Shown here piece by piece: positions 2,047-61,800 of a DNA stretch of 64,000 nt. A model generated the notes under the pieces. The model was not told the origin of the DNA. It saw only the letters and a list, made by a program, of their open reading frames with translations, and ran no database searches. Each line of letters opens with the position of its first letter. Within the stretch, counting starts at the first letter, position 1. Location: NCBI GenBank assembly GCA_965238005.1, contig OZ250165.1, forward strand, positions 3,584,001 through 3,648,000, written 5' to 3'. Source of the DNA: Longimicrobiales bacterium (lineage in GTDB: Bacteria; Gemmatimonadota; Gemmatimonadetes; Longimicrobiales; Gaopeijiaceae). The translations under genes and the position numbers were made by a program.

Positions 2047-3897
2047 TCAGCAGGAAAGGCAGTTGTGGTTGTTCTTCGAGCCCAAGCTCTCCAGTAGCTC
2101 CAGCGCCTCGGGGAACGGCTGCACCCGCTGGACCGGTCCGTTGGCCATGTCGGCGGTGGTCTGGCCTGGCCGGCTCACCACCGTCACATCGGCGCCGTGC
2201 TCCACCAGGTACCGGATCATCTCCACGTCGCCCCTGGCCGCGGCGTGATGGAGGGGTGAATAGCCGTTGTGGTCCCGGGCGTTGACGTCGGCGCCCTGCT
2301 CCTCCACCAGGTAGCTCAGCGCCGGCATCCAACCGTCCGGCACGTGGCGATGCGAGTTGCCCGCGAAGCCTTCACCGTAGCCGACACCCGAGGCCGCATG
2401 GATGGGGTGCACGGCTGGCCCCCCCACCTGGACCGGCGGCAGTCCGGACCGATCCTCGCGCTCGCCACCCCTGCGTCGCCGGTTGGGCACCTTCAGGGTC
2501 GTCATGCTGGGATCGGCGCCGTGGGCCACCAGCTGCTTCATGGCCTCCACGTCCAAGGCGTAGGCGGCTCGCCAGAAGGGTGTCGCTCCCTTCGTGTCCA
2601 CGCCCAGGAGATCGAAGGTGTATGACATGTACCACAGGTGCTTCGTCAACCGGATGTTCGGATCCACCCCAGCCTCGAGGAGCGCCTTCACAACCTCCAG
2701 GTGCGTGTGTTTTTGCTGCCGATACGCCTGCTGTTGCGGATATCGGGCCTTGGGCGCCCATTGCGCGTTCAGCGCGGCGTAGAGGGGCGTCGCCCCGGCG
2801 TCACTCGCCAGTGACGGATCCGCCTCACGCTCGAGCAGGCTCATGGCCAGGTCGAAGTGGCCATTGATCATGGCGATGAGCATGGGACTCGTATGGTCCC
2901 CCAAGCTCACCTGATCGATGTCGGCGCCGGCGTCGAGGAGGGCCAGAGCCGCCTCCACGTGGCCTTCGCGCGCAGCGTAGAGGAGCGCCGAGAGGCCACC
3001 GCGGCCACCCACGAGATCCGCATAGGTGAGGGGTTGGGGCTGGGCCTCCTCCAGATCCACCGTCTCCGCTTCCAGCTCAGCAACCGGAGTGCGTTGCTCC
3101 TGGAGGGCGGCACGAACCGCCGCCTGAACCTGGCTGGGCGTCGGTCCGCCCGTCTGCTGATCCGGCCCCTGGGCGGTCCGGAACGCCTCGAGCACCTGGT
3201 TCCGCCGCTGGCCGGCGGCCTGATCGGCCTGCAGCCTCACCGCCATGTCTTCCACCACCGTGGTGATGGCCACGTCGGCCCCCCGATCCAGGAGCACATG
3301 GATCGCCTCCACCCGGTTGTTCGCGACCGCGAACATGAGGGGAGTCTGTCCCAGGGCGGAATCGAGTGCGTTCACGTCCGCTCCGCCGTTTAGAAGAAGC
3401 AAGACAGCGTCCGCACTCCCCGACGCGGCGGCGAAGTGGAGCGCCGTCGCTCCTCCGGTGGTGGTCGTGGCCCCCGGATTCGCTCCCGCCTTCAGGAACG
3501 TCTCCACCACTGGCGCCATCCCGGCCCGGCTCGCCAGGTGGAGAGGCGTGTAGCGGCCGACCCGCGTCACGGCTTCGAGATCGGCTCCGGCGTAGATCAG
3601 CATCTCCGCCATCTCGGCGCCGCCGCCCTCGGCAGCCCAGTGTAAGGCCGTCATGCCGTCCCCCTGGGCGGCGTTCACATCGGCTCCCTGCTTGAGCAAC
3701 GCGCGCACCGCCCCGACGTCGCCCCGTTCCGCGGCGTCCGCTACCGGGGACTCCACTACCGGGGAGTCCTCCTCCCGGGAGTCGAGGGGGGCAACTCGAG
3801 AGTCGGCTATTACCGGCGGAGAGGCTGGGACTGCCACCAGCATGATCGTCGTCAGGCCGAGGGCCCCAAGTGCGTTTACGCGCAGCGTGTCGCTCAT
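2047..3897 (-). CDS. Secreted ankyrin-repeat protein (triad copy 1)
   Basis: Hydrophobic signal peptide, many G-x-TA/PLH-x-AA..GADVN ankyrin repeats, C-terminal NNHNCLSC; ATG overlaps the upstream TGA (TGATG). Confidence 0.92.
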   Translation of the reverse strand: MSDTLRVNALGALGLTTIMLVAVPASPPVIADSRVAPLDSREEDSPVVESPVADAAERGDVGAVRALLKQGADVNAAQGDGMTALHWAAEGGGAEMAEMLIYAGADLEAVTRVGRYTPLHLASRAGMAPVVETFLKAGANPGATTTTGGATALHFAAASGSADAVLLLLNGGADVNALDSALGQTPLMFAVANNRVEAIHVLLDRGADVAITTVVEDMAVRLQADQAAGQRRNQVLEAFRTAQGPDQQTGGPTPSQVQAAVRAALQEQRTPVAELEAETVDLEEAQPQPLTYADLVGGRGGLSALLYAAREGHVEAALALLDAGADIDQVSLGDHTSPMLIAMINGHFDLAMSLLEREADPSLASDAGATPLYAALNAQWAPKARYPQQQAYRQQKHTHLEVVKALLEAGVDPNIRLTKHLWYMSYTFDLLGVDTKGATPFWRAAYALDVEAMKQLVAHGADPSMTTLKVPNRRRRGGEREDRSGLPPVQVGGPAVHPIHAASGVGYGEGFAGNSHRHVPDGWMPALSYLVEEQGADVNARDHNGYSPLHHAAARGDVEMIRYLVEHGADVTVVSRPGQTTADMANGPVQRVQPFPEALELLESLGSKNNHNCLSC

Positions 3898-5291
3898 CAG
3901 ACCGTCAGTGAGAAGTCGCCGGTGCTGTCGCCGAAGCTCTCCATGTCGTCGAGCCCCAGCTTGTGCAACAAGCTCAGCATCACGTTGGCCATAGGCGTCC
4001 CGGCCTCGGCCTTCAGATGCGTGTTGCCCGCCAGTCGGCCGTTGGCTCCACCCACGACGACGAGCGGGCAGCGCTTGTGGTTGTGGACGTTGGGGTCGCC
4101 CATGGGAGACCCGTAGATGAGCACGGTCTTGTCCAGGAGGGAGGCGTCGCCCTCCATGGTGTCCTGCAGCTTCTGCAGAAAGTACGGAAGCATGCCGACG
4201 TGGTATCGGTTGATGAGGGCGAACTCCTCGATGGCCGCCTCGTTCCCGCCGTGGTGGGAGGCCGGGTGGAAGGGCTTGTCGGATCCACTCTCGGGGTAGA
4301 CGCGAGCCGAGGAGTCCCTACCCATCTTTAGTGAGAAGACGCGGGTCATGTCCGATTGGAAGGCCAGGACTTGGAGGTCGAGCATGAGCTTGACGTGCTC
4401 CTCGAAGGAGTCGGGCACACCGGCTGGCGCCTCGGGAAGCTCCCGCAGCTCGCCGCTGGTGTTGTAGGCCTCGACCATCTCCATCCGCCGCTCGATCTCG
4501 CGGATGTCCTGCAGATACCGGTCCAGCCGCTGGCGGTCGGCCGGTCCCAGCTCCCTCTGCAGCTGTGCGACCCTGCCCGTGATCCAGTCGAGGATACTCC
4601 GGTTGGCCTGCCGCCGGGCCGCCCGCTCCTTGGCGGTGCCCCCGGCCCCGAAGAGCTGCTCGAAGGCGACGCGGGGATCGCGGATCACCGGGAGAGGCTC
4701 CGTGGGCGACGCCCAGCTGATGGAGTCGGTGTACACGCACGTGTAGCCGTACGCGCATCCCCCGGACTGGTTGATGTTCTCGATACAGAGCTGCATCGAC
4801 GGGATGGGCGTGTCCTGGCCGAACCGGTGTGCGTATAGCTGATCCAGCGACGTTCCCACGAAGACGTCCGAGCCTTCCGTCTGCTTGGGATGGGCCTGGG
4901 TGAGGAAGGTCGCGCTGGAGCGGAAGTGGTCGCCTCCGATCTCCGCTGCCTTGGTGGCCTCGGCCCCCCTCACGTCAGTGTTGCTGACGATGGTCAGATG
5001 GTTCCTGAAGCGCTCCAGGGAGCTCAAGCTCGTGGGACTCAGATCGAAGTCCCGACCCACCGCCGCCGGCGACCACAGGTTCTTGGAGGCGCCGTACTCA
5101 CTCGCACCCGCCGCACCATGCACCATTTCGATGGCCACCAAACGTGTGGCGTCGGTCACTGCGGATCCGCCCGCCTGGGCCCAGAGCCTCCCGGCCGGGA
5201 CCATGGCATCGAGGAAGGGCAACGCCACCGTCGCGCCCAAGCCCCTCAGGACCTCGCGCCGCGATATGTGCTTGCCTGTGATGAACTCCAT
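3897..5291 (-). CDS. DUF1552-family protein with twin-arginine-like N-terminus (triad copy 1)
   Basis: ISRREVLRGLGATVALPFLDAM start, SLDQ, GCAYGYTC, SISW..PLP..DPR..FEQLFG, HPASHHG and NVHNHKRCP motifs; GGAGG RBS upstream. Confidence 0.88.
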   Translation of the reverse strand: MEFITGKHISRREVLRGLGATVALPFLDAMVPAGRLWAQAGGSAVTDATRLVAIEMVHGAAGASEYGASKNLWSPAAVGRDFDLSPTSLSSLERFRNHLTIVSNTDVRGAEATKAAEIGGDHFRSSATFLTQAHPKQTEGSDVFVGTSLDQLYAHRFGQDTPIPSMQLCIENINQSGGCAYGYTCVYTDSISWASPTEPLPVIRDPRVAFEQLFGAGGTAKERAARRQANRSILDWITGRVAQLQRELGPADRQRLDRYLQDIREIERRMEMVEAYNTSGELRELPEAPAGVPDSFEEHVKLMLDLQVLAFQSDMTRVFSLKMGRDSSARVYPESGSDKPFHPASHHGGNEAAIEEFALINRYHVGMLPYFLQKLQDTMEGDASLLDKTVLIYGSPMGDPNVHNHKRCPLVVVGGANGRLAGNTHLKAEAGTPMANVMLSLLHKLGLDDMESFGDSTGDFSLTV

Positions 5292-6081
5292 CTACTGCCT
5301 CCTCGATGCGATGTATTGCGACTCTACGCTCCGCCGGCCTCTCCGCCCGGCTCATCCGGAACGCCGGGCTCTTCACGACTCCCAGAATGAACGACGACAT
5401 GCGGTAGTCGTTCTCCTCGGCGTCCCTGGCGATGGCCCGGACGGTCGGCTTGTCGTAGTACTCGATCCGACGGCCGAGGGCATAGGCCATGAGGTTCTCC
5501 GTGAACGTCCTGACCAGCGGGATGGGACGCCGAAGCAGGGCCTGCCGCAGGTCCCTGGGACTCGTCACGGGGGTGCCGTCGTACAGCTCACCTCGTGTGT
5601 CCAGCGGCATCCCGTTTTCTCTGATGCGCCACTTGCCGGTCACGTCGAAGTTGTCCAGGGCCAGACCGATGGGGTCCATGAACTTGTGGCAGGAGCTGCA
5701 CACCGGATTCGAGCGGTGCATCTCCATCCGCTCCCTCGTGGTGAGCATCCGGCCGCCCTCGGACCCCTTGGTCTGCTCCAGATCGGGCACGCCGGGCGGG
5801 GGCGGGGGGGGCGGGGTGCCCAGGAGGACCTCCATGACCCATTTCCCCCTCAGCACCGGTGAAGTCCGGCCGGCGTGGGAGGTGAGAGTGAGAACGCTCC
5901 CGTGACCCAGCAAGCCCCTCCGCCGATCGTCGGCCAGCTCGACCCTGCGGAAGTGGGTCCCGGTGATGCCGGGAATGCCGTAGTGCCTGGCCAGGCGCTC
6001 GTTCACGTAGGTGTAGTCGGCGCTGAAGAGGTCGAAGATGCTCCGATCTTCTCGGACGAGGCTGTAGAAGAAGAGCTCCGT
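5044..6081. repeat. Near-identical tract shared with 10943-11980 (offset 5899)
   Basis: Read-by-eye comparison shows about 1.04 kb identical except two substitutions seen (GVV/GIV, AIARD/AIVRD). Confidence 0.85.
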
Positions 6082-7911
6082 CTCCCGCCGCATTGCGTCC
6101 GCGAGCTGCTGGTGGAAGTCGGGATACATCAGCCGATCCGGATGAACCTTGTCCAGGTCCTCCAGCCGAAGCCACTGTGCGGCGAACCTGGTGCCCAGGG
6201 CCTCAGAACGGGGATCGGCCAGCATACGACGCACCTGCTCTTCGAGGCCTCCCTCATCGGACAGCTCACCGCGACCGGCGGCGTCCACCAGCTCCTCGTC
6301 CGGCGGCGCGCCCCAGAGGAAGAACGACAGGCGCGACGCCAGGTCCACGTCGCCTATGCGGTAACTCTCGCCGAGCTCGAAGTCCTCCGGAGGCTCCTCG
6401 AATCGGAACACGAAGTCGGGACTCGCAAGGATCGCCTGGAGGGCCATCCCGATCCCCACCTCGAAACCGCCGTCCTCCGCGCCGACCTGGTAGAAGGACC
6501 TCAGAGCGGCGAGGTCGCGTTCGGTCAGGGGTCGCCGATACGCCTGGGCTCCCAACCTGGAGATGATCTCCTCCTCGCACGCCGGCTCCTCCTCGGGTGA
6601 AGTCGGGCGACAGGTGAAGATCTTCCTCCTACTGGGCGTCTCCGAGACGCCCGTGGGGTTGTGAGGACCCTTCACCACCAGGTCCTTCAGGTGCGCGAGG
6701 GCGGTGATCCCGTAGCCGCCGACCCCGATCTGCCGATCCGCCAACGACCACTCGTGAGGCGACATGAGGTCGTCGACGGGGCCCTCGGACTGTCGGATGA
6801 AAGCTGCGGAGACCCGCTGCGGTCCGGCCCGCACGAAGATCGGCTCCGTCTCCATGATGACGCCGTTGGGGTCCGACACGCTCATCCAGCGATCGACCTC
6901 GAGCAGCGCCATCCGCTCGCCGTTGATGGACACCTCGACCTGCTCGTCCCTCGCGACCCGGCCGTAGAATCCCCCGGTGGTCGTGTGCTCGTACGCCATC
7001 TTGAAGACGTACTCACCGTCGGCCGGGAAGTTGTGGATCACCGAGATACCGCCCCGCGTCCCGCGGGGGGCGCCCTCCACCCGATCCCACTGGGTGGCAT
7101 AGCCCGGGTTCGTGTAGGTCGTGGAGGTCGGGATGGCGTCGGGGTCGCCGATGGCCAGCCGGGTGATGTCGCTCGCCGCCCGGAGGTAGGCGTCCATCAA
7201 CGTAGCCGACAGCATCTGGACATCGGCGATGTTGTCGAAGTTGGCGCTCTTCGTGTCGAGCGGAAGGTAGTCGCCGGCGTCGATGTCGAGGTCCAGAAGG
7301 TCCTGGATCGAGCGGGCGTACTCGGCCCGGTTGAGCCGCTGGAAGGGCCGGCTGCCCGGATTGGGGTCCCGGGCGGCGGCCTCGTCGATGAGGGTCTCCA
7401 GGGTCTCGACCAGCGCCAGGAGCGTGTCGGGGCTCGGTCGTGGCGCACCGGGGAGCGGCATCATGCCCGCCCGGAGCTTCACGATCATCTTCTCCGCCGT
7501 CTCGGCCATCTCGGGGGCCCGCGCCACATCGAATTCCGACAGCGTGAGGTTTCCCGTGAGCATCACGTCGTTGTGGCAAACGACGCAGTACTGCTTGACG
7601 ACGGCGGTGAGCGAGTCGGCCGGTATGCTGGGTGCGCGACCGTCCCATGAGGCGGACGCGGTCACGCCCTCTGGAAGTTCGGGCCCAGGTCCACGAACCG
7701 ACGGATCGGCGTAGGCCGTCAGATATCGCTGGAGGACCGCGGTCATGGAGGCGGACGACGACGCGTCGCCGCCGTGAACCACAGTGGCCTCCCATGTGGT
7801 CGCCAAAGGCGAAGCCGCCTGCACCGCCTGCGACCACGCGGTCCTCGGGAGAGCCGCTAGGCTCACGAGGATAAGCAGGGTTCGCGCCGCCGACGCGCGG
7901 AGTGTGTTCAT
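5098..7911 (-). CDS. DUF1592/1588/1587/1595/1585 (PSD) protein with two c-type heme motifs (triad copy 1)
   Basis: Signal peptide, CVVCH and CSSCH, RLNRAEY, ASRLSFFLW..PDEEL, TSPVLRGKWV, PPPPPP and YALGR. The ORF overlaps the next gene by 194 nt. Confidence 0.88.
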   Translation of the reverse strand: MNTLRASAARTLLILVSLAALPRTAWSQAVQAASPLATTWEATVVHGGDASSSASMTAVLQRYLTAYADPSVRGPGPELPEGVTASASWDGRAPSIPADSLTAVVKQYCVVCHNDVMLTGNLTLSEFDVARAPEMAETAEKMIVKLRAGMMPLPGAPRPSPDTLLALVETLETLIDEAAARDPNPGSRPFQRLNRAEYARSIQDLLDLDIDAGDYLPLDTKSANFDNIADVQMLSATLMDAYLRAASDITRLAIGDPDAIPTSTTYTNPGYATQWDRVEGAPRGTRGGISVIHNFPADGEYVFKMAYEHTTTGGFYGRVARDEQVEVSINGERMALLEVDRWMSVSDPNGVIMETEPIFVRAGPQRVSAAFIRQSEGPVDDLMSPHEWSLADRQIGVGGYGITALAHLKDLVVKGPHNPTGVSETPSRRKIFTCRPTSPEEEPACEEEIISRLGAQAYRRPLTERDLAALRSFYQVGAEDGGFEVGIGMALQAILASPDFVFRFEEPPEDFELGESYRIGDVDLASRLSFFLWGAPPDEELVDAAGRGELSDEGGLEEQVRRMLADPRSEALGTRFAAQWLRLEDLDKVHPDRLMYPDFHQQLADAMRRETELFFYSLVREDRSIFDLFSADYTYVNERLARHYGIPGITGTHFRRVELADDRRRGLLGHGSVLTLTSHAGRTSPVLRGKWVMEVLLGTPPPPPPPGVPDLEQTKGSEGGRMLTTRERMEMHRSNPVCSSCHKFMDPIGLALDNFDVTGKWRIRENGMPLDTRGELYDGTPVTSPRDLRQALLRRPIPLVRTFTENLMAYALGRRIEYYDKPTVRAIARDAEENDYRMSSFILGVVKSPAFRMSRAERPAERRVAIHRIEEAVDGVHHRQAHIAARGPEGLGRDGGVALPRCHGPGREALGPGGRIRSDRRHTFGGHRNGAWCGGCE

Positions 7912-8014: not shown

Positions 8015-9796
8015 TCAGCATGATACGCAGTTGTGGTTGTTCTTGGCGCCCAGGCTCTCCAGCAGCTTCACCGTCTCGGGGAACGGCTGGATGCGCTGCA
8101 CCGGACCGTTTGCCATGTCGACGGTCGTCTGCCCCCGACGGCTTACAGCCATGACGTCGGCGCCCTGCTCCACCAGGTAGCGGATCAGCTCGTTGTCACC
8201 CCTGGCGGCGGCGTGATGGACGGCGTTGTAGCCGTTGTGGTCCCTGGCGTTCACGTCGGCCCCGTGCTCCTCCACGAGGTACTTCACCGTGGGCAGCCAG
8301 CCATCCAAGACGTGACGGTGGGAGTTGCCGGCAAACCCCTCGCCATACCCCACGCCCGAGGCCGCATGGATCGGCCACGCTCCCGGCCCACCCATCGGAA
8401 CCGGTGGCAGCCCGGAGAGGTCCTCACCCCCGCTCCGACGACCACGCTCGGGTATCTTCGTGGTCGGGACGTTCGGGTCGGCGCCGTACGCCACCAGCAG
8501 GCGCATCGCCTCGACGTCCAGGGCGAAGGCGGCCCGCCAGAACGGCGTCGCCCCGGCCCGGGTCACCCTCAACAGATCGTTGTTGTAGGTCGTGTACCAT
8601 AGCGGCTTCTCGAGCCGCACCTTGGGGTCCACTCCCGCATCGAGGAGGGCCCTCATCACCTCCAGGTAGGTCGCCTGCTGCTGCATGTAGTCCGTCGTCT
8701 GCGGATGCCGCGACTTGGGCGCCCAGTGCATGTTCAGCACGGCGTAGAGGGGCGTCGCCCCAGCGTCACTGGCCAGGCTGGGGTCCGCGCCCCGCTCCAA
8801 CAGGAGCATCACCAGATCGAAGTGACCGTTGATGGCGGCGATGAGCATGGGGCTCGTGTGGTCCGCCGCGCTCACCCGGTTGATATCCGCACCTGCCTCG
8901 ACCAGAGCCAGCGACGCTTCCTTGTGACCCTCCCGAGCCGCCAGGAGGAGGGCCGTGAGGCCGCCGTGGCTGCCCACCAGACCCGCGTACGAGAGGGGAT
9001 CGATCTCCGTCGTCCCCCGCAGCTCCACCTCCTGGGGCAGTTGGCGTCCGCCAGGCGGCTGTTCGCCCGCCTGGGGCGGGTATCCCGGCGCCGCACCGCG
9101 CTCGGGGTGTGGCCCTTGGTTGTCCCGGCCCCGTGGATCCTGCGCGTCCCTGACTGCCGCCAACCTCCGGTTCCGGCGGCTGCGATCGACCCGATCCTCC
9201 TCTTCACGAACCTTGATGTCCACTACCTTCGCCGCAATGGCCGGGTCCGCACCGCCCTCGATGAGCGCGTGAATCGCGTCCACCCGGTTGGACGCCGCTC
9301 CGAACATGAGAGGTGTCTGGCCCCACTGGGACTCCCTGGCGTTCACTTCCGCGCCGTGCTCCAAGAGGACCGCAACCGCCCCGGCGCTCCCCGCCGCCCC
9401 GGCGAAGTGGAGTGCCGTGGCTTCCCCTGTACTGGTTCGGGCACCGGGATCAGAACCGGCTGAGAGCAGAGCTTCCACCACGGATGGGTGCCCTGCTTTG
9501 CTCGCCAGGTGGAGTGGGGCGTAGTCACCGATCCGCGTCACCGCACCGAGGTTGGCGCCGGCGTAGATCAGCATCTCGGCCAACTCCAGGTGGCCGGTCT
9601 CAGCCGCCCAGTGCAGAGCCGTCATGCCGTCGCCCTGGGCCGCGTTCACGTCGGCACCTCGTCGAAGCAGCGTGCGCACCGCCTCCAGGTCGCCTCTCAT
9701 GGCCGCATCGGCCACGGGGGAGTCGGAGACGCTCATCCAGATCAGTGCTGTCAGGCAGAGCGCGCCCACCACGTTCACTCGGAGCGTATATCTCAT
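8015..9796 (-). CDS. Secreted ankyrin-repeat protein (triad copy 2)
   Basis: Paralogue of 2047..3897 with signal peptide, ankyrin repeats and C-terminal NNHNCVSC. Confidence 0.92.
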   Translation of the reverse strand: MRYTLRVNVVGALCLTALIWMSVSDSPVADAAMRGDLEAVRTLLRRGADVNAAQGDGMTALHWAAETGHLELAEMLIYAGANLGAVTRIGDYAPLHLASKAGHPSVVEALLSAGSDPGARTSTGEATALHFAGAAGSAGAVAVLLEHGAEVNARESQWGQTPLMFGAASNRVDAIHALIEGGADPAIAAKVVDIKVREEEDRVDRSRRNRRLAAVRDAQDPRGRDNQGPHPERGAAPGYPPQAGEQPPGGRQLPQEVELRGTTEIDPLSYAGLVGSHGGLTALLLAAREGHKEASLALVEAGADINRVSAADHTSPMLIAAINGHFDLVMLLLERGADPSLASDAGATPLYAVLNMHWAPKSRHPQTTDYMQQQATYLEVMRALLDAGVDPKVRLEKPLWYTTYNNDLLRVTRAGATPFWRAAFALDVEAMRLLVAYGADPNVPTTKIPERGRRSGGEDLSGLPPVPMGGPGAWPIHAASGVGYGEGFAGNSHRHVLDGWLPTVKYLVEEHGADVNARDHNGYNAVHHAAARGDNELIRYLVEQGADVMAVSRRGQTTVDMANGPVQRIQPFPETVKLLESLGAKNNHNCVSC

Positions 9797-11190
9797 CAGA
9801 CCGTCAGCGAGAAGTCGCCCGTGCTGTCCCCGAAGCTCTCGATGTCGTCGAGGCCCAGCCTGTGCATCAGCGTAAGCATCACGTTCGCCATGGGCGTCCC
9901 CGGAGCGGCTCTCAGATGCATCTTGCCCTCGAGCCGGCCGTTGGCTCCACCCACCACGAAGAGCGGACAGCGCTTGTGGTTGTGGACGTTGGGGTCGCCC
10001 ATGGGGGACCCGTAGATGACCATGGTCTTGTCGAGCAGAGACTGGTCGCCCTCCATGGTGCTCTGCAGCTTCTCGAGGAAGTACGGGATCAAGCTGACGT
10101 GGTACCGGTTGATGACGGCGAACTCCTCGATGGCGCTCTCGTTCCCGCCGTGGTGGGACGCAGGATGGAAGGGCTTGTCCGTACCGCTCTCCGGGTAGAC
10201 CCGGCTCGAGGCGTCCCGCCCCATCTTGAATGAGAAGACCCGTGTCATGTCCGACTGGAAGGCCAGCACCTGAAGGTCGAACATGAGCTTCACGTGCTCA
10301 TCGAAGGCATCGGGCACGCCGGCCGGCGCCTCAGGCAGCTCGCGGAGCTCACCGCTCAGGTTGTACACTTCGACCCGCTGGATCCGGCGCTCGATCTCGC
10401 GGATGTCCTCCAGGTAACGGTCCATCCGGACACGGTCACCGGCGCTGAGCTCTCTCTTGAGATCCGCCACCTCGTCGGTGATCCAGTCGAGGATGCTCCG
10501 GCTCGTGCGCCTCCGGGCCGCCCGCTCCTCGGCGCTCCCACCGGCCCCGAAGAGCTGGTCGAACGCGACCCGGGGATCCCGGATCATGGGAAGCGGCTCC
10601 GTGGGAGCGGCCCAGCTGATGGTGTCCGTGTAGACGCAGGCGTAGCCGTAGGCGCATCCCCCTGCCTGGTCCACGTTCTCGATGCAGAGCTGCATGGACG
10701 GGATGGGCGTGTCCTGGCCGAACCTCCGGGCGTAGAACTGGTCCAGAGACATGCCCACGGCGACGTCGGAGCTCTCGGTCTGCTTCGGATGGGCCTGGGT
10801 GAGGAAGGTCGCGCTGGAGCGGAAGTGGTCGCCCCCGATCTCCTTCGCCTGAAACGCCTCGGCGTTCCTGACGTCGGTGTCGCTGACGATGGTCAGGTAG
10901 TCGCGGAAGGGCTCCATGGAGCTCAGGCTCGTGGGGCTCAGGTCGAAGTCCCGACCCACCGCCGCCGGCGACCACAGGTTCTTGGAGGCGCCGTACTCAC
11001 TCGCACCCGCCGCACCATGCACCATTTCGATGGCCACCAAACGTGTGGCGTCGGTCACTGCGGATCCGCCCGCCTGGGCCCAGAGCCTCCCGGCCGGGAC
11101 CATGGCATCGAGGAAGGGCAACGCCACCGTCGCGCCCAAGCCCCTCAGGACCTCGCGCCGCGATATGTGCTTGCCTGTGATGAACTCCAT
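9796..11190 (-). CDS. DUF1552-family protein (triad copy 2)
   Basis: 464-aa paralogue of 3897..5291 with the same motifs. Confidence 0.88.
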   Translation of the reverse strand: MEFITGKHISRREVLRGLGATVALPFLDAMVPAGRLWAQAGGSAVTDATRLVAIEMVHGAAGASEYGASKNLWSPAAVGRDFDLSPTSLSSMEPFRDYLTIVSDTDVRNAEAFQAKEIGGDHFRSSATFLTQAHPKQTESSDVAVGMSLDQFYARRFGQDTPIPSMQLCIENVDQAGGCAYGYACVYTDTISWAAPTEPLPMIRDPRVAFDQLFGAGGSAEERAARRRTSRSILDWITDEVADLKRELSAGDRVRMDRYLEDIREIERRIQRVEVYNLSGELRELPEAPAGVPDAFDEHVKLMFDLQVLAFQSDMTRVFSFKMGRDASSRVYPESGTDKPFHPASHHGGNESAIEEFAVINRYHVSLIPYFLEKLQSTMEGDQSLLDKTMVIYGSPMGDPNVHNHKRCPLFVVGGANGRLEGKMHLRAAPGTPMANVMLTLMHRLGLDDIESFGDSTGDFSLTV

Positions 11191-13783
11191 CTACTGCCTC
11201 CTCGATGCGATGTATTGCGACTCTACGCTCCGCCGGCCTCTCCGCCCGGCTCATCCGGAACGCCGGGCTCTTCACGATTCCCAGAATGAACGACGACATG
11301 CGGTAGTCGTTCTCCTCGGCGTCCCTGACGATGGCCCGGACGGTCGGCTTGTCGTAGTACTCGATCCGACGGCCGAGGGCATAGGCCATGAGGTTCTCCG
11401 TGAACGTCCTGACCAGCGGGATGGGACGCCGAAGCAGGGCCTGCCGCAGGTCCCTGGGACTCGTCACGGGGGTGCCGTCGTACAGCTCACCTCGTGTGTC
11501 CAGCGGCATCCCGTTTTCTCTGATGCGCCACTTGCCGGTCACGTCGAAGTTGTCCAGGGCCAGACCGATGGGGTCCATGAACTTGTGGCAGGAGCTGCAC
11601 ACCGGATTCGAGCGGTGCATCTCCATCCGCTCCCTCGTGGTGAGCATCCGGCCGCCCTCGGACCCCTTGGTCTGCTCCAGATCGGGCACGCCGGGCGGGG
11701 GCGGGGGGGGCGGGGTGCCCAGGAGGACCTCCATGACCCATTTCCCCCTCAGCACCGGTGAAGTCCGGCCGGCGTGGGAGGTGAGAGTGAGAACGCTCCC
11801 GTGACCCAGCAAGCCCCTCCGCCGATCGTCGGCCAGCTCGACCCTGCGGAAGTGGGTCCCGGTGATGCCGGGAATGCCGTAGTGCCTGGCCAGGCGCTCG
11901 TTCACGTAGGTGTAGTCGGCGCTGAAGAGGTCGAAGATGCTCCGATCTTCTCGGACGAGGCTGTAGAAGAAGAGCTCCGTTTCCCGGCGCATGGCCTCTT
12001 TGAGCTGCTGGTCGAAGCCGGGATACAGCCGGACGTCGGGGTGGATCTTCTCGAGGTCCTGGAGGCGGAGCCACTGGCCGGCGAACCGCGTGCCCAACGC
12101 CTCGGAGCGCGGATCGGCGAGCATGCGGCGGACCTGCTCTTCGAGACGTGCGGGATCCGAGAGATCACCCCGAGACGCCACGGCCATGAGCTCCTCGTCG
12201 GGCGGCGTGCCCCAGAGGAAAAACGACACACGTGAGGCGAGATCCTGGTCGTTGATCCAGTAGTCTTCGCCCGGCGCGACCCCAGGTGTGGGCTCCTCGA
12301 AGCGGAAGACGAAGTGGGGGCTGGCGAGGATCGCCTCCAGGCCCGTACGGATTCCGACCTCGAAGCCGCCCGCCGTCGCTCCCATCTCGTAGAACGACAT
12401 CAGGTCGCCCAGATTGTCCGCAGTGAGTGCCCTGCGGTACGCCTGGGTGCCGAGTCTGGTGACGATCTCTTCGGCGCAGCTCTTCTCTTCTCCCGGCGAC
12501 GTCGGACGGCACGTGAAGATCTTCCGCCGGCTCGGCGTCTCCGAGACACCCGTGGGGTTGTGCGGCCCGTTGATGGCCAGATCCCTCAGGTGCGGCAGAC
12601 TCGTGAATCCGTAGGCGTCGGCGATGCTGGTACTCGCCAGTGACCATTCGTGAGGAGAGACCAGGTCCTGGAGCGGCCCCTCCAAGCGTCTGATGAATGC
12701 CGCGGAGACCCTGTGGGGGCCCGCACGCACCGGAATGGGGCCCGTCCGCATGTTTACGCCGTCGGGGTCCGAACGGTGCATCCACCGGTCGATCTCCAGG
12801 AGCGCCACGCGCTCCCCGTCGATGGAGATCTCGAGCTGCTCCGGCACCTCGGCGGTGTGCAGCGCCGCTCTGCCGCTGCCATAGAGAGCGCCGGTGGTCT
12901 CATGGTGGAAGGAGACCCGGAACAGGTACTCGCCGTCCGCCGGGAAGTTGTGCACCACCGAGATTCCGCCGCGGGTCCCATGGGGGGCACTCTCCGCCCG
13001 CTCCGTCTGGGAGTTCCAGCGTGAGACCTTGAAGGTGGCCTCGCTGGCCGACGCGTCCGGATTGCCCACCGCCAGGCGGCTGATCTCGCTGGCCGCGGCC
13101 AGGTAGGCGTTCATGAGAGTGGGAGAGAGCAGCTGCACATCGGCGATGTTGTCGAAGTTCGCGCTCTTCGTGTCCAGCGGCAGGTAGGCTCCCGCCTCCA
13201 CGTCCAGCGTCAGCAGATCCCGGATCGACGCCGAGTACTCCGCACGGTTGAGCCGCTGGAACGTACGGTGGCCCGGATTCGGGGCTTCGGCAGCCGCCTC
13301 GTCGATGAGCGTCTCGAGGGTTTCGACCAGGGCGAGAAGGGTGTCGGGACTCGGACGGGGGGCGCCCGGAATGGGCATCATGCCCGCCCGGAGCTTCACG
13401 ATCATCTTCTCCGCCGTCTCGGCCATCTCGGGGGCCCGCGCCACATCGAATTCCGACAGCGTGAGGTTTCCCGTGAGCATCACGTCGTTGTGGCAAACGA
13501 CGCAGTACTGCTTGACGACGGCGGTGAGCGAGTCGGCGGGAATCGTGGGGGCTGAGCTGGCCGTCAGGACGGGTAGAGGGCCAGGGGCGGGGCCTCGCAA
13601 CGACGGACTCGCATAGGCCGCCAGGTACCCTTGGAGCGCCGCGTCGAGAGCGCCGTCCGAGGAGGAGCCGCCCGGCACGCCCTGCGACCACGCCGCGCAG
13701 GGGTGGGCTAGACCCACCAGCGCGATCAGGATCGGAAATGGCGGCGCTCGGAGTCTCCTCATTCTCGGCCTCTCGAAAGGCAC
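10997..13783 (-). CDS. DUF1592-type di-heme PSD protein (triad copy 2); start may be ATG at 13762
   Basis: Paralogue of 5098..7911 with CVVCH, CSSCH and the same domain motifs. Confidence 0.88.
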   Translation of the reverse strand: MPFERPRMRRLRAPPFPILIALVGLAHPCAAWSQGVPGGSSSDGALDAALQGYLAAYASPSLRGPAPGPLPVLTASSAPTIPADSLTAVVKQYCVVCHNDVMLTGNLTLSEFDVARAPEMAETAEKMIVKLRAGMMPIPGAPRPSPDTLLALVETLETLIDEAAAEAPNPGHRTFQRLNRAEYSASIRDLLTLDVEAGAYLPLDTKSANFDNIADVQLLSPTLMNAYLAAASEISRLAVGNPDASASEATFKVSRWNSQTERAESAPHGTRGGISVVHNFPADGEYLFRVSFHHETTGALYGSGRAALHTAEVPEQLEISIDGERVALLEIDRWMHRSDPDGVNMRTGPIPVRAGPHRVSAAFIRRLEGPLQDLVSPHEWSLASTSIADAYGFTSLPHLRDLAINGPHNPTGVSETPSRRKIFTCRPTSPGEEKSCAEEIVTRLGTQAYRRALTADNLGDLMSFYEMGATAGGFEVGIRTGLEAILASPHFVFRFEEPTPGVAPGEDYWINDQDLASRVSFFLWGTPPDEELMAVASRGDLSDPARLEEQVRRMLADPRSEALGTRFAGQWLRLQDLEKIHPDVRLYPGFDQQLKEAMRRETELFFYSLVREDRSIFDLFSADYTYVNERLARHYGIPGITGTHFRRVELADDRRRGLLGHGSVLTLTSHAGRTSPVLRGKWVMEVLLGTPPPPPPPGVPDLEQTKGSEGGRMLTTRERMEMHRSNPVCSSCHKFMDPIGLALDNFDVTGKWRIRENGMPLDTRGELYDGTPVTSPRDLRQALLRRPIPLVRTFTENLMAYALGRRIEYYDKPTVRAIVRDAEENDYRMSSFILGIVKSPAFRMSRAERPAERRVAIHRIEEAVDGVHHRQAHIAARGPEGLGRDGGVALPRCHGPGREALGPGGRIRSDRRHTFGGHRNGAWCGGCE

Positions 13784-16874: not shown

Positions 16875-17894
16875 ATGAGGGCAACGTTCTTGTGTTGGCT
16901 CTGGCCGTAGCGGCGGCTTCCCCTCTCCCGGCTCAGCGCGCCTACGAGCCCCCGAACAAGGAGGCCCAGCGCCAGCGTCGGGCGAAGTTCCTGGAGGCCA
17001 TGGACGGCGGGATCGCCATTGTCGTGGCCGCCGAGAAGGACCAGGACTTCATCTACGAGTTCTTCGTGGACCACTCGGACCTCCACGACTTCATCTACCT
17101 GACGAGGCTGGAGGGGATCGACGCCTCGGAGTCGGTCCTGGTACTGGCCCCCGGCGCCGAGACGTACGCCGAGGTCCTCTACACCTCCCGGGAACCCGAG
17201 GAGATTCAGGAGAAGACGGGCATCGAGCACGTCTATCCCTACGAGCTCTTCATGGAGCACCTGTCCGACGCGATTACCGACTACTCCCTCCTCCGGACCC
17301 ACCAGCGGGGGGCAAGGGGCTCGCGACAGATCTGTCACGGTCCCTCGGCGAGGAGAAGAAGGTCCACTTCAATTACCAGCGTTTCCTGAAGCTGGCGGAG
17401 ACCCCCCGGAGCGCCTCGATATCACCAACCGGCTACATCGGGGCCGAGTACGCGCACTACACGGCGGACTTCGGGCGCTCCGTACCGGTGAGGGGCAAGT
17501 ACACTCCCGAGTAGCGGCGCATCGCCGAGATCCCCGCGTCCAGAAGCAGGTCATCGCCGCGGTGAAGCCCGGGAGGACGTTCGGCGAGAGCCAGGCACTC
17601 AAGGGCAGGCTCATGACGGAGGCTGGGCTGGGAGGCGTGACCGGGACATACGGCATCAGCCACTTCGTCGGGATGGAGATCCACGACGTGGGCTTCTACG
17701 ACATCCCCTGGGAGCCGGGCATGTGCTTCGTTATCGAGTGGCGGGTGAGCCAGGACGACTTCTCCATCCGCTTCCAGGACGTGATCCTCGTGACCGAGGA
17801 CGGCCACGAGTGGCTCACCAGGCACTCCCCCATCGAGCCCGACGAGATCGAGGCCCTCATGGCCAAGCGGGGGATCTGGGAGGGGGGGCGCTAG
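16875..17894 (+). pseudogene. Xaa-Pro aminopeptidase (M24) pseudogene
   Basis: Fragments in several frames: aminopeptidase-P N-domain (DFIYLT), IGAEY..YTADFGRSVPVRGKYTPE followed by in-frame TAG at 17512, then SHFVGMEIHDVG..IRFQDVILVT. Frameshift in the signal peptide and an internal deletion. Confidence 0.82.
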
Positions 17895-21257: not shown

Positions 21258-23405
21258 TGCCATCGGCGCTTTCTCGCCTGGCACGACGGTGCGCCCGCAC
21301 CGTGAACCCCCACCCGGTCGTCCGTCAGTACGATCGGGTTGATTGCGGCCCCGCCTGCCTCCTTTCAGTGCTACGGTTCCACGGCGGCGATACCGGGCTC
21401 CCCCGGGTGCGATCCTTGAGTGGCACCGACGCGAGCGGGACCAGCCTCCTTGGGCTCCATCGCGCCGCCGTCGCCCTCGGATTCGAAGCCCGCGGCGCCA
21501 CCGGCGACTACGACAGCCTGCGCAAGGAACGACTGCCGTGTATCGCCCACGTCGTTGTCGAGGGAGCTCAGCACTACGTCGTCGTCTATGATGCCCGAGA
21601 CCGACGGCTGAAGGTGGGCGACCCGGCTCTCGGACCTCGGTGGCTCACGCGTGAGGATTTCGAAGGTATTTGGAGTCAACGAGCCGTCTTGCTCCTACAC
21701 CCCGGCCGGGATCTCCTCCGAGAGCACCCACCTCACTGGTTCCGATGGGTTCTCGGCCGCATCCGCCACGTTCACGGGTGGCTGGTGCAGTCTGTGTTCC
21801 TCGGCGTGATCTACACGATTCTGGGTCTCGCTACAGCGGTCGTGGTTCAGCGGCTGATCGATGACTTCATCGAGATGCGTGACGTGTCGCGGATTCTGTG
21901 GGCCGGTGGGTTTCTTTTTGCCCTCCATGCATTGAGGGGATTGGCCGGATACCTCCGTCAGCGGTTCTTGGTCGGACTCTCCAAGAGAGCCTCGAACGCC
22001 ATCGCATCGGAGTTCCTGGAACACCTGTTCAAGCTTCCCGCTCGTTACTTTGACACGCGAAAGCGTGGAGACATCATCGCACGTCTGCAGGATGCCTCGC
22101 ATATTCAAACCGCGGTCTTGGAGATTCTGGGTAGCACGACCATCGACGTACTCATCACGGTGCTGTCGATGGCTGCCGTCTTCTACTTCTCGCCACCGCT
22201 GGGTTGGATCGCACTGATCCTCCTGGTACCCTACGCCCTCCTCACAGGCACCGCGGCACGACGGATTCATCGGAAGCATCATGCCGCCCTGCGCCTATGG
22301 GCGGCTTCACGCTTCCTACGTCGACGCCATCGAGGGCATCGACTCGATCCGTGGGCTCGGCGTCGGACCGGCCTTCACTCGGCTGAACCTGGCGCTCTTC
22401 GGCCACTTCCAAACCCGGGTCGAGCGGCTCGGACTCACACGTGCCGCGATCGGATTCCGGGTCGAGGGTGTGAGCAGCGCCCTGCTGGCCACGATCCTGA
22501 CCGTCGGCGCCCTTCTAGTGGTGACAGGAGATCTGCGCCTCGGGGCGATGATGGCCGCCTACTCACTCGTTACCGGCACCTTGCCGAGCCTGCAGCGAGT
22601 CATGGAGGGCCTCTTCGCGTTTCAAAGCGGCGGGGCGGCGGCCCAAAGGCTGCAGGACCTCATGCTCACCGCCCCGGAAGAGAGTAGCGGGGAGCGTCCG
22701 TTCCGGATGGGAGTCGACTAGAGGTTGGACGACGCCCGCTTCGAATGGCCCAACGGAGAGCCGGTTCTGAACGGAGCCAGCCTGACACTCCGGCGCGGAC
22801 GGATCACTGGATTGAGCGGAGCGAACGGATCCGGCAAGACCACGCTCGTTCATCTCCTCACGCGGCGCTATCCGCTGAATGGGGGACGTTTGAGAATCGA
22901 CGGCGTAGTGGCGTCGAGGATCGACCTTCAGGCGTATCGTCGGCAGGTAGCCGTCGTTCCAGAGGCCGTGAAGATCTTTCACGGCACTCTTGGTGACAAC
23001 ATCGCACTCGCACGGGAGGAGCTGTCTCGGGAAGAGCTTACTGACCGCCTTCGTGACCTCGCGGTGGGCTCGTTCATCAGTCGGTTCAGGGGGGGACTTG
23101 CCACCATCCTCGGCGAGGACGGGCGTCGCTTGTCTGCCGGTGAGCAGCAGATGATCGGTCTGATACGCGTGCTGCTATGCCGGCCCTCGGTTCTCATCAT
23201 CGACGAGGGCCTGAACGCCCTGGACCCCCGGCTCTACCGGACAGCCATCAGGGCCCTCGCAGCGCACGCCTCCCGAGGAGCGGTTCTTCTCATCTCTCAT
23301 CACCCGTCCGTGTTGGCCCTCGCCGATGAGCAACTCCGCCTCGAAGGGGGCGTCATCACCTCAGTCATGGGGCACGAACCCGGTCCCGACGCCAAGGCGG
23401 CCTGA
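21254..23405 (+). pseudogene. Peptidase-containing ABC transporter (C39 + TMD + NBD), frameshifted and with an in-frame stop
   Basis: QYDRVDCGPACL, HYVVV and GDP C39 motifs; TMD continues in another frame from about 22292; TAG at 22719-22721; then GANGSGKT, LSAGEQQ and IIDEG in the same frame. Confidence 0.88.
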
Positions 23406-58152: not shown

Positions 58153-58657
58153 TCACTTCTCTGCGAGGCTGGCGTAGAGTCGCTTGACCATCTGGATCTG
58201 GCCGGCGTGATATGTGTCGTGCAGGACGATCCCCATGAGTAGATCGGCGTACGTGTATTCGCTCTGTCCGCCCGACAGCTCGTCCAGGCGCGACGGGTCG
58301 AAGTCTCGCATCGCCTCGAGGAGCAGAGTGTGATACTCGCGCACCGGGGCCCGGTCCTCCTTCCAAGAGCTCGCCGTGATCTCCTTGGGCGGAGCCGGCC
58401 AGTTGGAGGGTGAGCGGGGGAATCCGCCGTGGGCCCCTCCCGTGATCCTGCGCCGGATCGCGTAGTTCCAGTAGGCGACATGCAAGGAGATCCCAGATGC
58501 TGTGCCGGTCGGGCGCCGGTTTCCACGCCGCCTCTTCCGGTTTCACTCCCCGGAATGCCCCGAGCACGCTGGCGCCACCGTGCCACAGCTTCGTGCCCGC
58601 CGGTGGGTCGAAGAGCCCGAGCGTCATCTCGAGCCTGCGGTCTTCCAGGTGCGCCAT
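58153..58657 (-). pseudogene. DinB-family protein, frameshifted near 58487
   Basis: WHGG..AAWKPAPDRHSIWDL in one frame; HVAYW..GIVLHDTYHAGQI in another. Confidence 0.82.
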
Positions 58658-58934: not shown

Positions 58935-60077
58935 TCAGTGCACGGTGAACTTCTGTACACGCCGGCCCGTGGACGCTTCTCCCACGTAGAGGTTTCCCCG
59001 TGAGTCGACGCTCATGCCGTGGGGCCGCAGGAACTGGCCTACCTGTCGGCCACCCCGGCCGAACTCCCCCACCACCTCCAAGCCTGCGCGCTGGAGTATC
59101 CAAACCTTATGGTTCGTCCCATCTGCCAGATACAGCCACTTCTGCTCCGGATCGGGTGACAGCCCGACCACGAAGGCCGACCCGGAGGCGCGCGTGAGCG
59201 GAGCGATGATCCTTTCCGCCACGAACGTCCCGTCGTGTTCGAACACCTGGATGCGGTTCCCTCTTCGGTCTGCGACGTAGATCAGTCCGTCGCTCGATCC
59301 GATGACACCATGGACCGTCGAGAACGCGCGGGGGGGTGGTCCCGCCGGATCGCGGTCACCGAAGTCGTAGTCGTCGTCCGGGGGCTCCCCGTAGGCACCC
59401 CAGTGCCGAAGGTAGTTCCCGGTGTCGCCTTCGTAGACGATCACCCGGCGATTCCGGTAGCCGTCAGCGATGTACACCTCGTTCGTCTCCGGGTCCACCC
59501 AGATTCCCGCTGGTCCACCGAGGAGATTGGGGTCGTCGCTCCCCCCGTTCACGTCGTATTCACCGAGGGTCATCACCAGTTCACCATCGCGCGTGAACTT
59601 CATGACCCGGTGATGTCGGAAGGTGCCGATCCAGACGTAGTCGTTGTGATCGATGAAGAGCCCGTGAGGGTTCCGGGGGTACTCCGATACGTCCTGTGTG
59701 GCCGCGTCCCCCCATCCCTGAACCACGTTTCCTTCGGAGTCGAACTCGATCACGTGGGGTGCGGGCACGCAGCACGTCCCGAGAGGCGGATCTTGCACGG
59801 CCGACGCTTCCTCGGGCGTCAATGTCTCCGGTTGGTGTGTCACCCAGACGTGGTCGGACGCATCGACGAAGACCGACGTCACGGATCCCATGATCCACTT
59901 GTTGGGCATCTCCTTGGGCCAGGAGGGGTCGACCTCGAACCGTGGCGTGCCACCATCGGCTGCGGTGGCCGCGCCACCCGCATCTCCGGACCCCGGCTCA
60001 CACGCAACGAATACGATCGAAAACGTCACAAGCAACGCGAGCGTGAGGCTTAGACGGGATTCAACGACTCTCTTCAT
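58935..60077 (-). CDS. NHL-repeat beta-propeller lipoprotein (PAL-like family)
   Basis: Lipobox FVAC, FEVDPSWP, PHGLFID, IADGYRNRRV, VADRRGNRIQVF and PHGMSVDSRGNLYVGE. Confidence 0.85.
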   Translation of the reverse strand: MKRVVESRLSLTLALLVTFSIVFVACEPGSGDAGGAATAADGGTPRFEVDPSWPKEMPNKWIMGSVTSVFVDASDHVWVTHQPETLTPEEASAVQDPPLGTCCVPAPHVIEFDSEGNVVQGWGDAATQDVSEYPRNPHGLFIDHNDYVWIGTFRHHRVMKFTRDGELVMTLGEYDVNGGSDDPNLLGGPAGIWVDPETNEVYIADGYRNRRVIVYEGDTGNYLRHWGAYGEPPDDDYDFGDRDPAGPPPRAFSTVHGVIGSSDGLIYVADRRGNRIQVFEHDGTFVAERIIAPLTRASGSAFVVGLSPDPEQKWLYLADGTNHKVWILQRAGLEVVGEFGRGGRQVGQFLRPHGMSVDSRGNLYVGEASTGRRVQKFTVH

Positions 60078-60176
60078 GATTCCTCCAACGTTTCCGCGCC
60101 GTGGCGCGACATGAACGGGCGACTCGAGGCCAGACTGAGGGGTCGGCCTTCGAATCGGAGGGCTCAACCACCGGCC

Positions 60177-60968
60177 CTACGTTTGCGCGGCCTTTTCGGC
60201 CGTCATCAGAACCGCCTTTACGCCGTGGGCCTCCGCGGAGTTCTGCGTGGACTGCTTTCGGAACCGGAAGGTCGGGACAACAGCAGATTTCACGCGGCTG
60301 AACCCGGACTCTTCCAGGAGCCTGAACATCTCTCCTTCCAGGAGAGCACCTCCGATTCAGGCCGCCCAGAGCTTGGGGTCATTCACGATAGATTGAGGGA
60401 GCTGCTTGCCGCTGACGATGTCCGTGATCGAGATCCGCCCGCCGGGCTTCAGGACACGGAACATCTCCTCCATCACCCGCCGCTTCCGGAACGAGAGATT
60501 GATGACTCCGTTGGAGATGACGACGTTCACCGACTCGTCGGGGAGGGGGATGTCTTCCATCCTGCCTTCGTGGCACTCCATCTCGGAGCCGGTGGCCGTG
60601 GCGTGCGCCTGAGCCCTCAAGCACATGTATGGGTTGAGGTCGACGCCGATCACCTTCCCCGTAGGCCCCGCACTCCATGAAGCGATGATCGCGTCGAGCC
60701 CGGCTCCGCTCCCCAGGTCGAGAACCGTCTCGCCGGGCTGGACGTTGCTGCGGAGGTGGGGGTTGCCTACCCCGGCGAAGGAAGCGACGGCGCCGGGTGG
60801 GGCCCGATCGAGCCAGTCGGACTGATAGCCGAAGAGCTCTGCGGCCTGCCGCCCGTGGAAGAAGTGGAACTCACCTTCAGGGTGGTCCGCCACGTCCTGA
60901 TACATGCGGACAATCTCGTCCTTGAGGAACTCCTCGAGTGATTCCTGGGCTTCAACAGCGTCCGCCAT
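60177..60968 (-). CDS. ArsM-like SAM-dependent methyltransferase, probable selenoprotein (UGA at codon 204; 263 aa)
   Basis: VLDLGSGAGLD SAM motif. TGA at 60357-60359 sits in LWAA-U-IGGAL, where ArsM has Cys, and the frame stays open and protein-like for 59 more codons. Confidence 0.8.
60330..60346 (-). promoter_or_regulatory. Putative bacterial SECIS hairpin
   Basis: CUCUCCU-GGA-AGGAGAG, a perfect 7-bp stem starting 10 nt after the UGA, with G first in the loop. Confidence 0.65.
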
Positions 60969-61028
60969 ATGGTCTCTCCTGGTCGCACGGCCGTCTGGCC
61001 GCCGGTTCGTGGCTCACGCCACCCTACC

Positions 61029-61800
61029 CTACGACTCGGGGCCGTGCAAGGCAGGGGAGTGGTCACTGGCCACCAGATCGAGGACGCCATCGTCCAGAGC
61101 CTGCCACAACGCTTCTCGGTGTCGGGCCTCCCGGATGGGAGGTGCGCACTTGAAGTTGGTGGCCCCGTCGGGCACCTCCTCGGCCGCGAATGTGAGGTAG
61201 TGGGGACACGTCTCGGCGGTCACCGGGAGTCCGCGGCCGCGGGCCTCGGCGAGCACGTCGGCCGTCTCAGCCGCCGATACGTGGACCACGTGCACCGCCG
61301 CGCTCGTCTCCGCGGAGAGCCGTACGAGGGCGGCAACGGCCTGTGTCTCCGCACTTGTAGCCCAGCACCCCGGCGTCCCGGAGCGGCGCGAGCTGGTCCC
61401 GATTGGCTGGCACGACGCCGCCCCAGACCCCGTAGTCCACCCAGCAGCGCCCCTCAGCGGCAGCCGTCTTGGCCTTCAGCGCGGCTGGCCTGGTGGTGAC
61501 CGGGCTGCTGTTGAGCGGCATGTCCCCCAGGGTCGTGATGCCGCCTGCCGCCGCCGCTTTGGTAGCCGTTTCGAAGCCTTCCCAGTTGGCGCGTCCCGGG
61601 TCATTGACGTGAACGTGTGAGTCCACCAGGCCGGGCATGACCATGGCGTCGCCTGGGTCCAGGTGGGGCGCGTCCGGGGTCGGAGTGCTCGGGGGCTCGA
61701 CCGCCACGACGACCCCGCCGGAAACCACGACGGATCCCGGGCGGACCCCCTCGGGTGTGACCACCCGGGAGCTGGAGACGATCAGGTCGGGCGCTTTCAT
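61029..61800 (-). pseudogene. allB: Allantoinase pseudogene with internal and C-terminal deletions
   Basis: PGLVDSHVHVNDPG..WEGFETAT..DMP, GYKC, then in another frame HVVHVS, ETCPHYL, FKCAPPIRE, ASDHSP and a premature end; far shorter than a full enzyme. Confidence 0.82.

Follow-up and report, generated by a model that had tools for sequence, protein, structure and literature searches.

Arsenite methyltransferases belong to the described selenoprotein families of prokaryotes. In the available parts of the literature on them, the family (NF008823/PRK11873) is listed with the motif UxxG under the experimentally verified families and is credited to Fomenko et al. 2007 (PMC13188914), the same entry recurs in PMC9312934, 41 such selenoproteins were counted in 39 organisms (PMC5029168), the family appears among the GOS selenoprotein families (PMC2398784), and ArsM fusions with more than one selenocysteine (Sec), which carry the UxxG motif, are credited to Haft & Tolstoy 2025 (PMC13188914). 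We have analysed a 64,000-nucleotide stretch of DNA from a Longimicrobiales bacterium of the phylum Gemmatimonadota (contig OZ250165.1, positions 3,584,001 to 3,648,000; hereafter the window), the minus strand of which carries a gene for an S-adenosylmethionine (SAM)-dependent methyltransferase of the ArsM fold with an in-frame UGA at codon 204. It is concluded that this UGA is very probably recoded to Sec in a genuine selenoprotein gene of a known family type. New is the occurrence of a stand-alone, single-Sec member without partner cysteines in Gemmatimonadota; it is not a new kind, mechanism or protein family.

The window protein shares with the NF008823/PRK11873-type selenoprotein the ArsM fold, the U-x-x-G where ArsM has its C-terminal As-binding Cys and the position of the selenocysteine insertion sequence (SECIS) directly behind the UGA, but it stays below the NF008823 cut-off and has no equivalents of the other ArsM cysteines. 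The methyltransferase domains of ArsM_AhpD_UU (NF041537), ArsM_DUF2284_UU (NF041536) and MTase_UXPK_star (NF047649) align with it over residues 12-256 at 174-200 bits, and the cut-offs of these models are missed (200 vs 510, 175 vs 575 and 174 vs 460, respectively). These models, 283-459 profile positions long, describe multi-Sec proteins in which the methyltransferase is fused to AhpD, to DUF2284 or to a UXPK tail, unlike the window protein, which is stand-alone and has a single Sec; the shortened members of its clade cease to align at about 200-203 of the exception profiles, which fits a shared Sec column. CmArsM, CrArsM and human AS3MT (4fr0, 5evj, 6cx6, 8xt7) have the SAM motif and the C(L/I)xGAL loop in common with it. 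They are 321-387 residues long as deposited, against 263 in the window protein, and presumably carry an extra C-terminal domain; they bind As(III) by Cys pairs or triads, whereas the window protein keeps one of these positions, as Sec.

The reading frame begins with the ATG at 60968-60966 and ends with the TAG at 60179-60177, and its sole in-frame TGA is codon 204, in the context KLWAA*IGGALLEG; a second TGA is absent, and the TAG comes 59 residues past Sec204. The product has 203 amino acids if the TGA is a stop and 263 if it is read through. An earlier inspection of the letters alone, the sequence-only reading, had located the apparent stop at 60357-60359 within LWAA*IGGAL, 59 further codons up to the TAG at 60177 and, 10 nt past the UGA, a perfect 7-bp hairpin with a G-led loop; position, context and continuing frame were reproduced by translation, and CUCUCCU-GGA-AGGAGAG was found at the place indicated. 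Its proposal that Sec insertion yields 263 residues where annotation stops at 203 is now backed by the conserved TGA, by selection on the tail and by the fit of the hairpin to SECIS elements.

A scan over one representative genome per species returned 242 stretches encoding relatives, the best 80 of which were analysed; these loci are 76-97% identical to the window gene and make up, together with it, a set of 81 sequences. The homologous codon was TGA in all 80 loci, with the frame open for 55-67 codons beyond it. The same column ends the public protein records: 119 of the 120 best database matches cover residues 1-203 only (77% of the query), most of the 120 being listed at 203 amino acids, with identity down to 81%, and the only full-length entry among them (P0010, 271 amino acids) is 74% identical through the C-terminal part. 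The mean entropies at codon positions 1, 2 and 3 were 0.40, 0.30 and 1.16 after the TGA and 0.37, 0.24 and 1.21 before it (81 sequences). Since these profiles are alike on either side, the tail is under the same protein-level purifying selection as the body of the protein. Directly behind the TGA the residues I-G-G (codons +1 to +3) are invariant while their third positions are free (entropy 1.0-1.9), and the consensus holds no ATG, GTG or TTG from the UGA to codon +10 (one locus has TTG at +6); thus this region can be reached only by decoding the UGA. It should be emphasized that TGA is not reassigned in this lineage, because it terminates 23 of the 27 window ORFs (open reading frames) checked and is the true terminator in 39 of the 81 orthologues. 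A true stop followed by an unconserved tail, which had been named beforehand as the outcome that would speak against recoding, was not encountered in any of the 80 loci.

The contig titles name Gemmatimonadota lineages, Longimicrobiales among them, for 67 of the 80 loci, and the remaining 13, with other or no phylum label, may be mis-binned. Eleven contigs with orthologues 76-81% identical to the Gemmatimonadota gene (L019, L023, L052, L070, L041, L077, L031, L055, L060, L073 and L075) bear the titles Akkermansiaceae, Acidimicrobiia, Bifidobacteriaceae, Burkholderiales, Acidobacteriota and Candidatus Eisenbacteria; for contigs titled outside Gemmatimonadota mis-binning is a more likely explanation than wide transfer. 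In one orthologue (L051, 10001-10777) the frame is interrupted not only by the conserved TGA but also by a stop at codon 62, which points to a broken copy or to an error of assembly; immediately downstream this orthologue is followed by a tRNA-Cys gene (10829-10901, reverse strand).

The RNA behind the UGA is constrained beyond its coding function. The hairpin, with its perfect 7-bp stem and 3-nt GGA loop, folds alone at -9.8 kcal/mol, a value matched by 1 of 200 dinucleotide shuffles. The bacterial SECIS model, as given in the accessible part of PMC13188914, has a loop of 3-9 nt, a stem of 4-16 bp, a G among the first two loop nucleotides, a UGA-to-loop distance of 16-37 nt and a minimum free energy of at most -7.5 kcal/mol; with a 3-nt loop, 7 bp, GG, 17 nt to the loop and its folding energy, the element anticipated by the sequence-only reading agrees with this model in every respect. 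The hairpin codons GCT CTC CTG GAA GGA GAG are frozen at synonymous sites: among 163 six-codon windows along the gene the one starting at +4 has the lowest synonymous entropy (0.23, where the gene averages 1.20). All 81 sequences have GCT at +4, with entropies of 0.97-1.83 at the 21 other conserved Ala columns, and 80 of them have GGA at +8, with 1.5-1.95 at the 21 other Gly columns; both codons end in A or T, yet the GC content at third codon positions of the gene is 83%.

The seven stem pairs are formed in 99.3% of 560 cells (80 distinct sequences). The closing pair is U-A in 59 of these sequences, C-G in 16 and U-G in 5, with no mismatch, and the C-G form combines a Leu-to-Pro replacement with the silent change of GAA to GAG; 4 sequences lack the outermost pair. 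None of 500 shuffles reached the observed percentage paired, the number of cells with two-sided change or the covariation score, and registers slid off the true one were 54-75% paired. The covariation support for the hairpin is real but thin. A longer lower stem, suggested by the 40-nt fold, was rejected because it is not conserved and its partners fall on freely varying third positions.

The protein itself is a class-I SAM methyltransferase with a GxGxG-type SAM motif, as indicated by the Pfam match to Methyltransf_31 (2.9e-26), the LDLGSGAG segment and the structural model. In 63 aligned homologues G88 is invariant and V82, L83, D84, G86 and G90 are nearly so. The best NCBIfam match is the arsenite methyltransferase NF008823 (204.4 bits), and the best PDB sequence matches are ArsM/AS3MT chains (E 2.7e-25). 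In these alignments the UGA stands opposite the Cys of ECLGGAL or ECLAGAL in the ArsM chains 4fr0, 4kw7, 5eg5 and 5evj, so the placement of the UGA at the catalytic Cys of the ArsM motif, asserted earlier from the letters alone, holds for the solved structures. This position corresponds to what we take to be the As(III)-binding Cys224 of CmArsM and Cys206 of human AS3MT.

The AlphaFold2 model, built on 63 sequences, has a predicted local distance difference test score (pLDDT) of 96.9 and a predicted template modelling score of 0.93. Residues 205-263 are modelled as helices 211-220 and 239-247 and strands 223-230 and 251-259 with block-mean pLDDT of 89-98, and at the Sec site the model passes from helix to strand without a break (residues 198-230). 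Since two helices and two strands of the fold lie behind the UGA, a product ending at residue 203 would lack part of it. In the Foldseek comparison with the PDB, each of the 12 best matches listed was an ArsM/AS3MT structure (TMq 0.59-0.72, E 1.8e-19 to 2.6e-17).

The wider family was surveyed on 150 cluster representatives of homologues, and here a Cys occupies the Sec column in 104 of them; with TGA in all close loci, this provides the Cys/UGA pair that the sequence-only reading had proposed to look for. At the three Cys columns 67 representatives have the canonical C-C-C, 34 have x-G-C with a single Cys, 22 end exactly at the Sec column and 27 are fragments or have other residues. All 22 representatives that end at the Sec column carry Gly at the SNC position. 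The single-Cys clade (34/150) is of the same length class as the window protein, has lost the same two partner Cys and shows 34-44% identity; it has Cys where the window protein has Sec, and its members are the Cys partners of the Sec form. Some members of the single-Cys clade are fused to Thioredoxin_5, MerC or Aminotran_5, unlike the window protein. The fusion partners found within the clade (CMD/AhpD, DUF2652, Thioredoxin_5, MerC and Aminotran_5) fit thiol-redox, chalcogen or heavy-metal chemistry, which we take as a hint only. The NF008823 cut-off was missed by 15 of 16 relatives scanned and reached only by the two-domain protein P0123. This entry, which joins an AhpD-like domain and a canonical ArsM domain to a second methyltransferase domain that breaks off at the Sec position, is one of five longer database representatives ending exactly at the Sec column; in the other four (P0153, P0181, P0197 and P0146) DUF2652 stands ahead of the cut methyltransferase domain. 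All five are probably shortened selenoproteins as well.

Several observations weigh against reading the gene as an ArsM-type selenoprotein gene. With longer flanks the fold around the hairpin is unexceptional (z = -2.07 at 40 nt and +0.19 at 50 nt), two-sided change is seen in only 1 of the 7 stem pairs with the six others nearly invariant, and the stem also encodes the conserved residues A-L-L-E-G-E; as the six pairs hardly vary, their conservation is silent on pairing, for or against. An Rfam scan of 59800-61200 gave no match, although to our knowledge Rfam holds no bacterial SECIS family. On the protein side, the NF008823 cut-off of 263 bits is missed, the partner As-binding Cys are replaced by Val67 (FAGVGN vs FYGCGS) and Gly154 (SNGV vs SNCV), and W stands at the Sec column in P0010, which lies on a 989-base metagenome contig, and in the representative P0188. 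Furthermore, selA, selB, selD and tRNA-Sec were not found in 1.16 Mb, a small sample of each genome, and no conserved gene neighbourhood supporting a substrate was detected, the best neighbour cluster being present in 6 of 81 loci.

The partner Cys of ArsM are, as we assume, Cys72 of the GCG motif, Cys174 of the SNC motif and the N-terminal Cys44, and residues 1-115 of the window protein contain no Cys at all. Because the partner Cys are absent and the NF008823 cut-off is missed, the substrate is uncertain, and judged by its sequence the protein is ArsM-like, not a demonstrable ArsM. Cys116 and Cys132 were considered as a replacement metal site, since they are invariant in the 81 orthologues, and were rejected: the commonest pair at these columns in the wider family is Leu/Phe, and the other residues found there are also mostly hydrophobic.

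The search for the Sec machinery was confined to the window and the flanks of the loci. ARAGORN detected 0 tRNAs in the 64-kb window and 6 ordinary tRNAs, with no tRNA-Sec, in the 80 loci (~20 kb per genome); NCBIfam profiles did not find Sel proteins among 45 window ORFs, and tblastn with SelA, SelB and SelD of E. coli K-12 gave no match at E 1e-3 in the window and the 80 loci. This leaves room for another residue at the UGA: a SelB-like factor or a variant tRNA could deliver Cys, and SelB-dependent Cys recoding systems are described in some bacteria, or the hairpin could promote near-cognate read-through with insertion of Trp. We nevertheless consider insertion of a residue other than Sec improbable. 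The geometry of the hairpin is exactly that of a bacterial SECIS, the column is predominantly Cys in the wider family, and the sub-threshold matches to NF041537, NF041536 and NF047649 point in the same direction; moreover, in the available part of PMC13188914 this column is the UxxG Sec site of the listed ArsM-type selenoprotein families. Although W occurs at the column in two database homologues, Trp would be odd to conserve at a ligand Cys position across 80 species. As judged from the protein record, the simplest account of the W in P0010 is that a TGA was translated with a TGA=Trp table, which gene callers may choose for a short metagenome contig such as that of this entry. On these grounds we infer Sec as the residue inserted.

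The UGA could also be a true stop, the enzyme being split into the 203-residue protein and a 50-residue peptide that restarts at the ATG of Met214, which we regard as very improbable. In 78 of 81 sequences codon +10 is an ATG, preceded by the Shine-Dalgarno-looking AAGGAGAG in the GGAG-rich 3' arm of the hairpin, and the ORF listing includes a 50-amino-acid ORF at 60177-60329. The spacing from GGAG to ATG is, however, just 2 nt, and the residues before this ATG (IGGALLEGE, +1 to +9) are conserved as protein with varying third positions at +1 to +3, thus they are translated in this frame; furthermore, the stop would fall exactly on the Cys column and would interrupt what is modelled as an unbroken helix-to-strand passage. 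A nonsense mutation in a decaying gene, for which the fragmented allantoinase gene next to it (61029-61800) and other fragmentary genes of the window (pieces of an ABC transporter and the tail of an aminopeptidase) could be quoted, has a negligible probability. The sequence-only reading had already argued against it in spite of the pseudogenes, and it is excluded by the identical TGA in 80/80 species-level relatives whose 76-97% identities exclude copies of a single sequence, by the intact downstream frame under purifying selection and by the best database matches, 119 of 120 of which cover the pre-TGA part only.

We also scanned for TGA-interrupted ORFs with SECIS-like hairpins, which gave 61 candidates, 53 of them belonging to the ArsM-like gene family. 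Pfam was applied to 5 of the 8 others and to the window TGA at 58153, and a domain spanning the TGA was seen only in L046:481-759; the TGA at 58153 was rejected as recoded, being an ordinary stop following a DinB_2 domain. L046:481-759 (plus strand) is a 93-residue AhpD-like ORF (Pfam CMD, residues 8-81) with the TGA at 610-612 in C-Y-P-U. Its hairpin has the same geometry as that of the ArsM-like gene, with an 11-nt spacer, the 7-bp stem CCUUGGC/GCCAAGG and a GUG loop; the ORF product matches, below threshold, the GSU3128 (seleno)protein family and the AhpD domain of ArsM_AhpD_UU. The ORF is present in 1 of 81 loci, on a Gemmatimonadota contig that carries it ~6.5 kb away from the ArsM-like gene; by its sequence features it is a convincing candidate for a second selenoprotein gene in the lineage and lends indirect support to Sec decoding there.

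If Sec is inserted, the following course of events may be envisaged. At UGA204 the downstream hairpin would offer its GGA loop to SelB carrying Sec-tRNA(Sec), and Sec insertion would replace termination to give the full-length protein. Sec204, in the loop W-A-A-U-I-G-G-A-L, would act as a soft nucleophile that holds the substrate beside the SAM methyl group. Since the other ArsM cysteines are lost, the substrate would be bound through a single Se-X bond and not by a two- or three-thiolate chelate. Probable substrates are metalloids or chalcogens, such as As(III)/MAs(III), Se or Te, and perhaps Hg. When selenium is lacking, termination at the UGA would yield only 203 residues; the last two strands would be missing, and the product would presumably be inactive.

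We propose only tentatively, and consider doubtful, that these proteins form a distinct enzyme class in which the single selenol holds a substrate other than free arsenite, for example a chalcogen on Sec204. In this variant S, Se or Te would be bound to Sec204 as selenenyl-sulfide or -selenide, methylated, and released by a thiol-redox partner. Every Sec form found lies in an ArsM-fold subclade that lacks the thiolate partners of the arsenic site, and the fusions to AhpD-like, DsbA-like thioredoxin, class-V aminotransferase (cysteine-desulfurase-like) and MerC domains fit chalcogen chemistry, as does the stand-alone AhpD-like CxxU candidate in L046.

Literature combining Gemmatimonadetes or Gemmatimonadota with selenocysteine or selenoprotein yielded no description of this gene or of selenoproteins of the phylum. 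The main text of BSepDB does not mention Gemmatimonadota, its Table S1 is a list of the analysed genomes, and the online database might already hold these genes. As a consequence of the UGA, public annotation cuts a whole clade to 203 residues, without the active-site residue and the last quarter of the fold, and labels the shortened entries "methyltransferase domain-containing protein", "SAM-dependent methyltransferase" or "arsenite methyltransferase". At least 80 species-level genomes, the majority from Gemmatimonadota, are concerned, as are 119 of the 120 closest database entries, and arsM gene counts in metagenome surveys of soil and sediment may mis-score members of the clade. The finding implies widespread Sec decoding in Gemmatimonadota, and an ArsM-fold enzyme with a single selenol would be a clean test of the benefit of Sec in metalloid methylation.

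Table 1. Positions in the window of the probable selenoprotein gene and its elements.
Feature	Position	Strand	Basis
Probable selenoprotein coding sequence, ArsM-fold SAM-dependent methyltransferase with Sec204; 263 codons + TAG	60177..60968	-	sequence, translation, family matches, model
Shine-Dalgarno-like GGAGAG, 5-nt spacer before ATG	60974..60979	-	read from sequence
SAM-binding glycine-rich motif VLDLGSGAG, residues 82-90	60699..60725	-	translation, homologue alignment
UGA codon 204, probable Sec; motif U-I-G-G = UxxG	60357..60359	-	conservation, Cys-column alignment
SECIS-like hairpin CUCUCCU/AGGAGAG, apical loop GGA	60330..60346	-	fold energy, pairing, frozen synonymous sites
59 post-UGA codons, residues 205-263, translated only upon recoding	60180..60356	-	positional entropies, model

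The surroundings of the gene were compared by clustering the ORFs within ~7 kb of it across the 81 loci, and the only recurrent ones were the gene itself and antisense ORFs overlapping it. Directly upstream in the window, also on the minus strand, the allantoinase gene is in two fragments that match profile positions 1-145 and 230-311 of 441. The flanks of this region lie ~0.5 kb apart in the window (61543 to 61051) and ~9.5 kb apart in L001 (361 to 9918), its closest relative; either the window has undergone a deletion or L001 an insertion.

Elsewhere in the window, two consecutive three-ORF blocks on the minus strand (2047-7911 and 8015-13783) have matching lengths: an ankyrin-repeat protein of 616 and 593 amino acids, an ORF of 464 amino acids in each, and one of 937 and 928 amino acids without family matches. 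The ORF lengths suggest a ~6-kb tandem duplication next to an IS1182 transposase (363-1685). On the plus strand an Xaa-Pro aminopeptidase-like C-terminal fragment (17562-17894) and an apparently split ABC exporter (22281-23405), consisting of a 146-amino-acid permease and a 226-amino-acid ATPase, are either decayed genes or the result of frameshift errors in long-read assembly. The plus-strand region 24774-45255 encodes a PfaD-PfaA-PfaC-like polyunsaturated fatty acid synthase followed by a FabH/OleA-like ketosynthase, an OleC-like olefin beta-lactone synthetase, an OleD-like reductase and a HetI-type phosphopantetheinyl transferase, and looks like a pfa-ole (polyunsaturated hydrocarbon) cluster.

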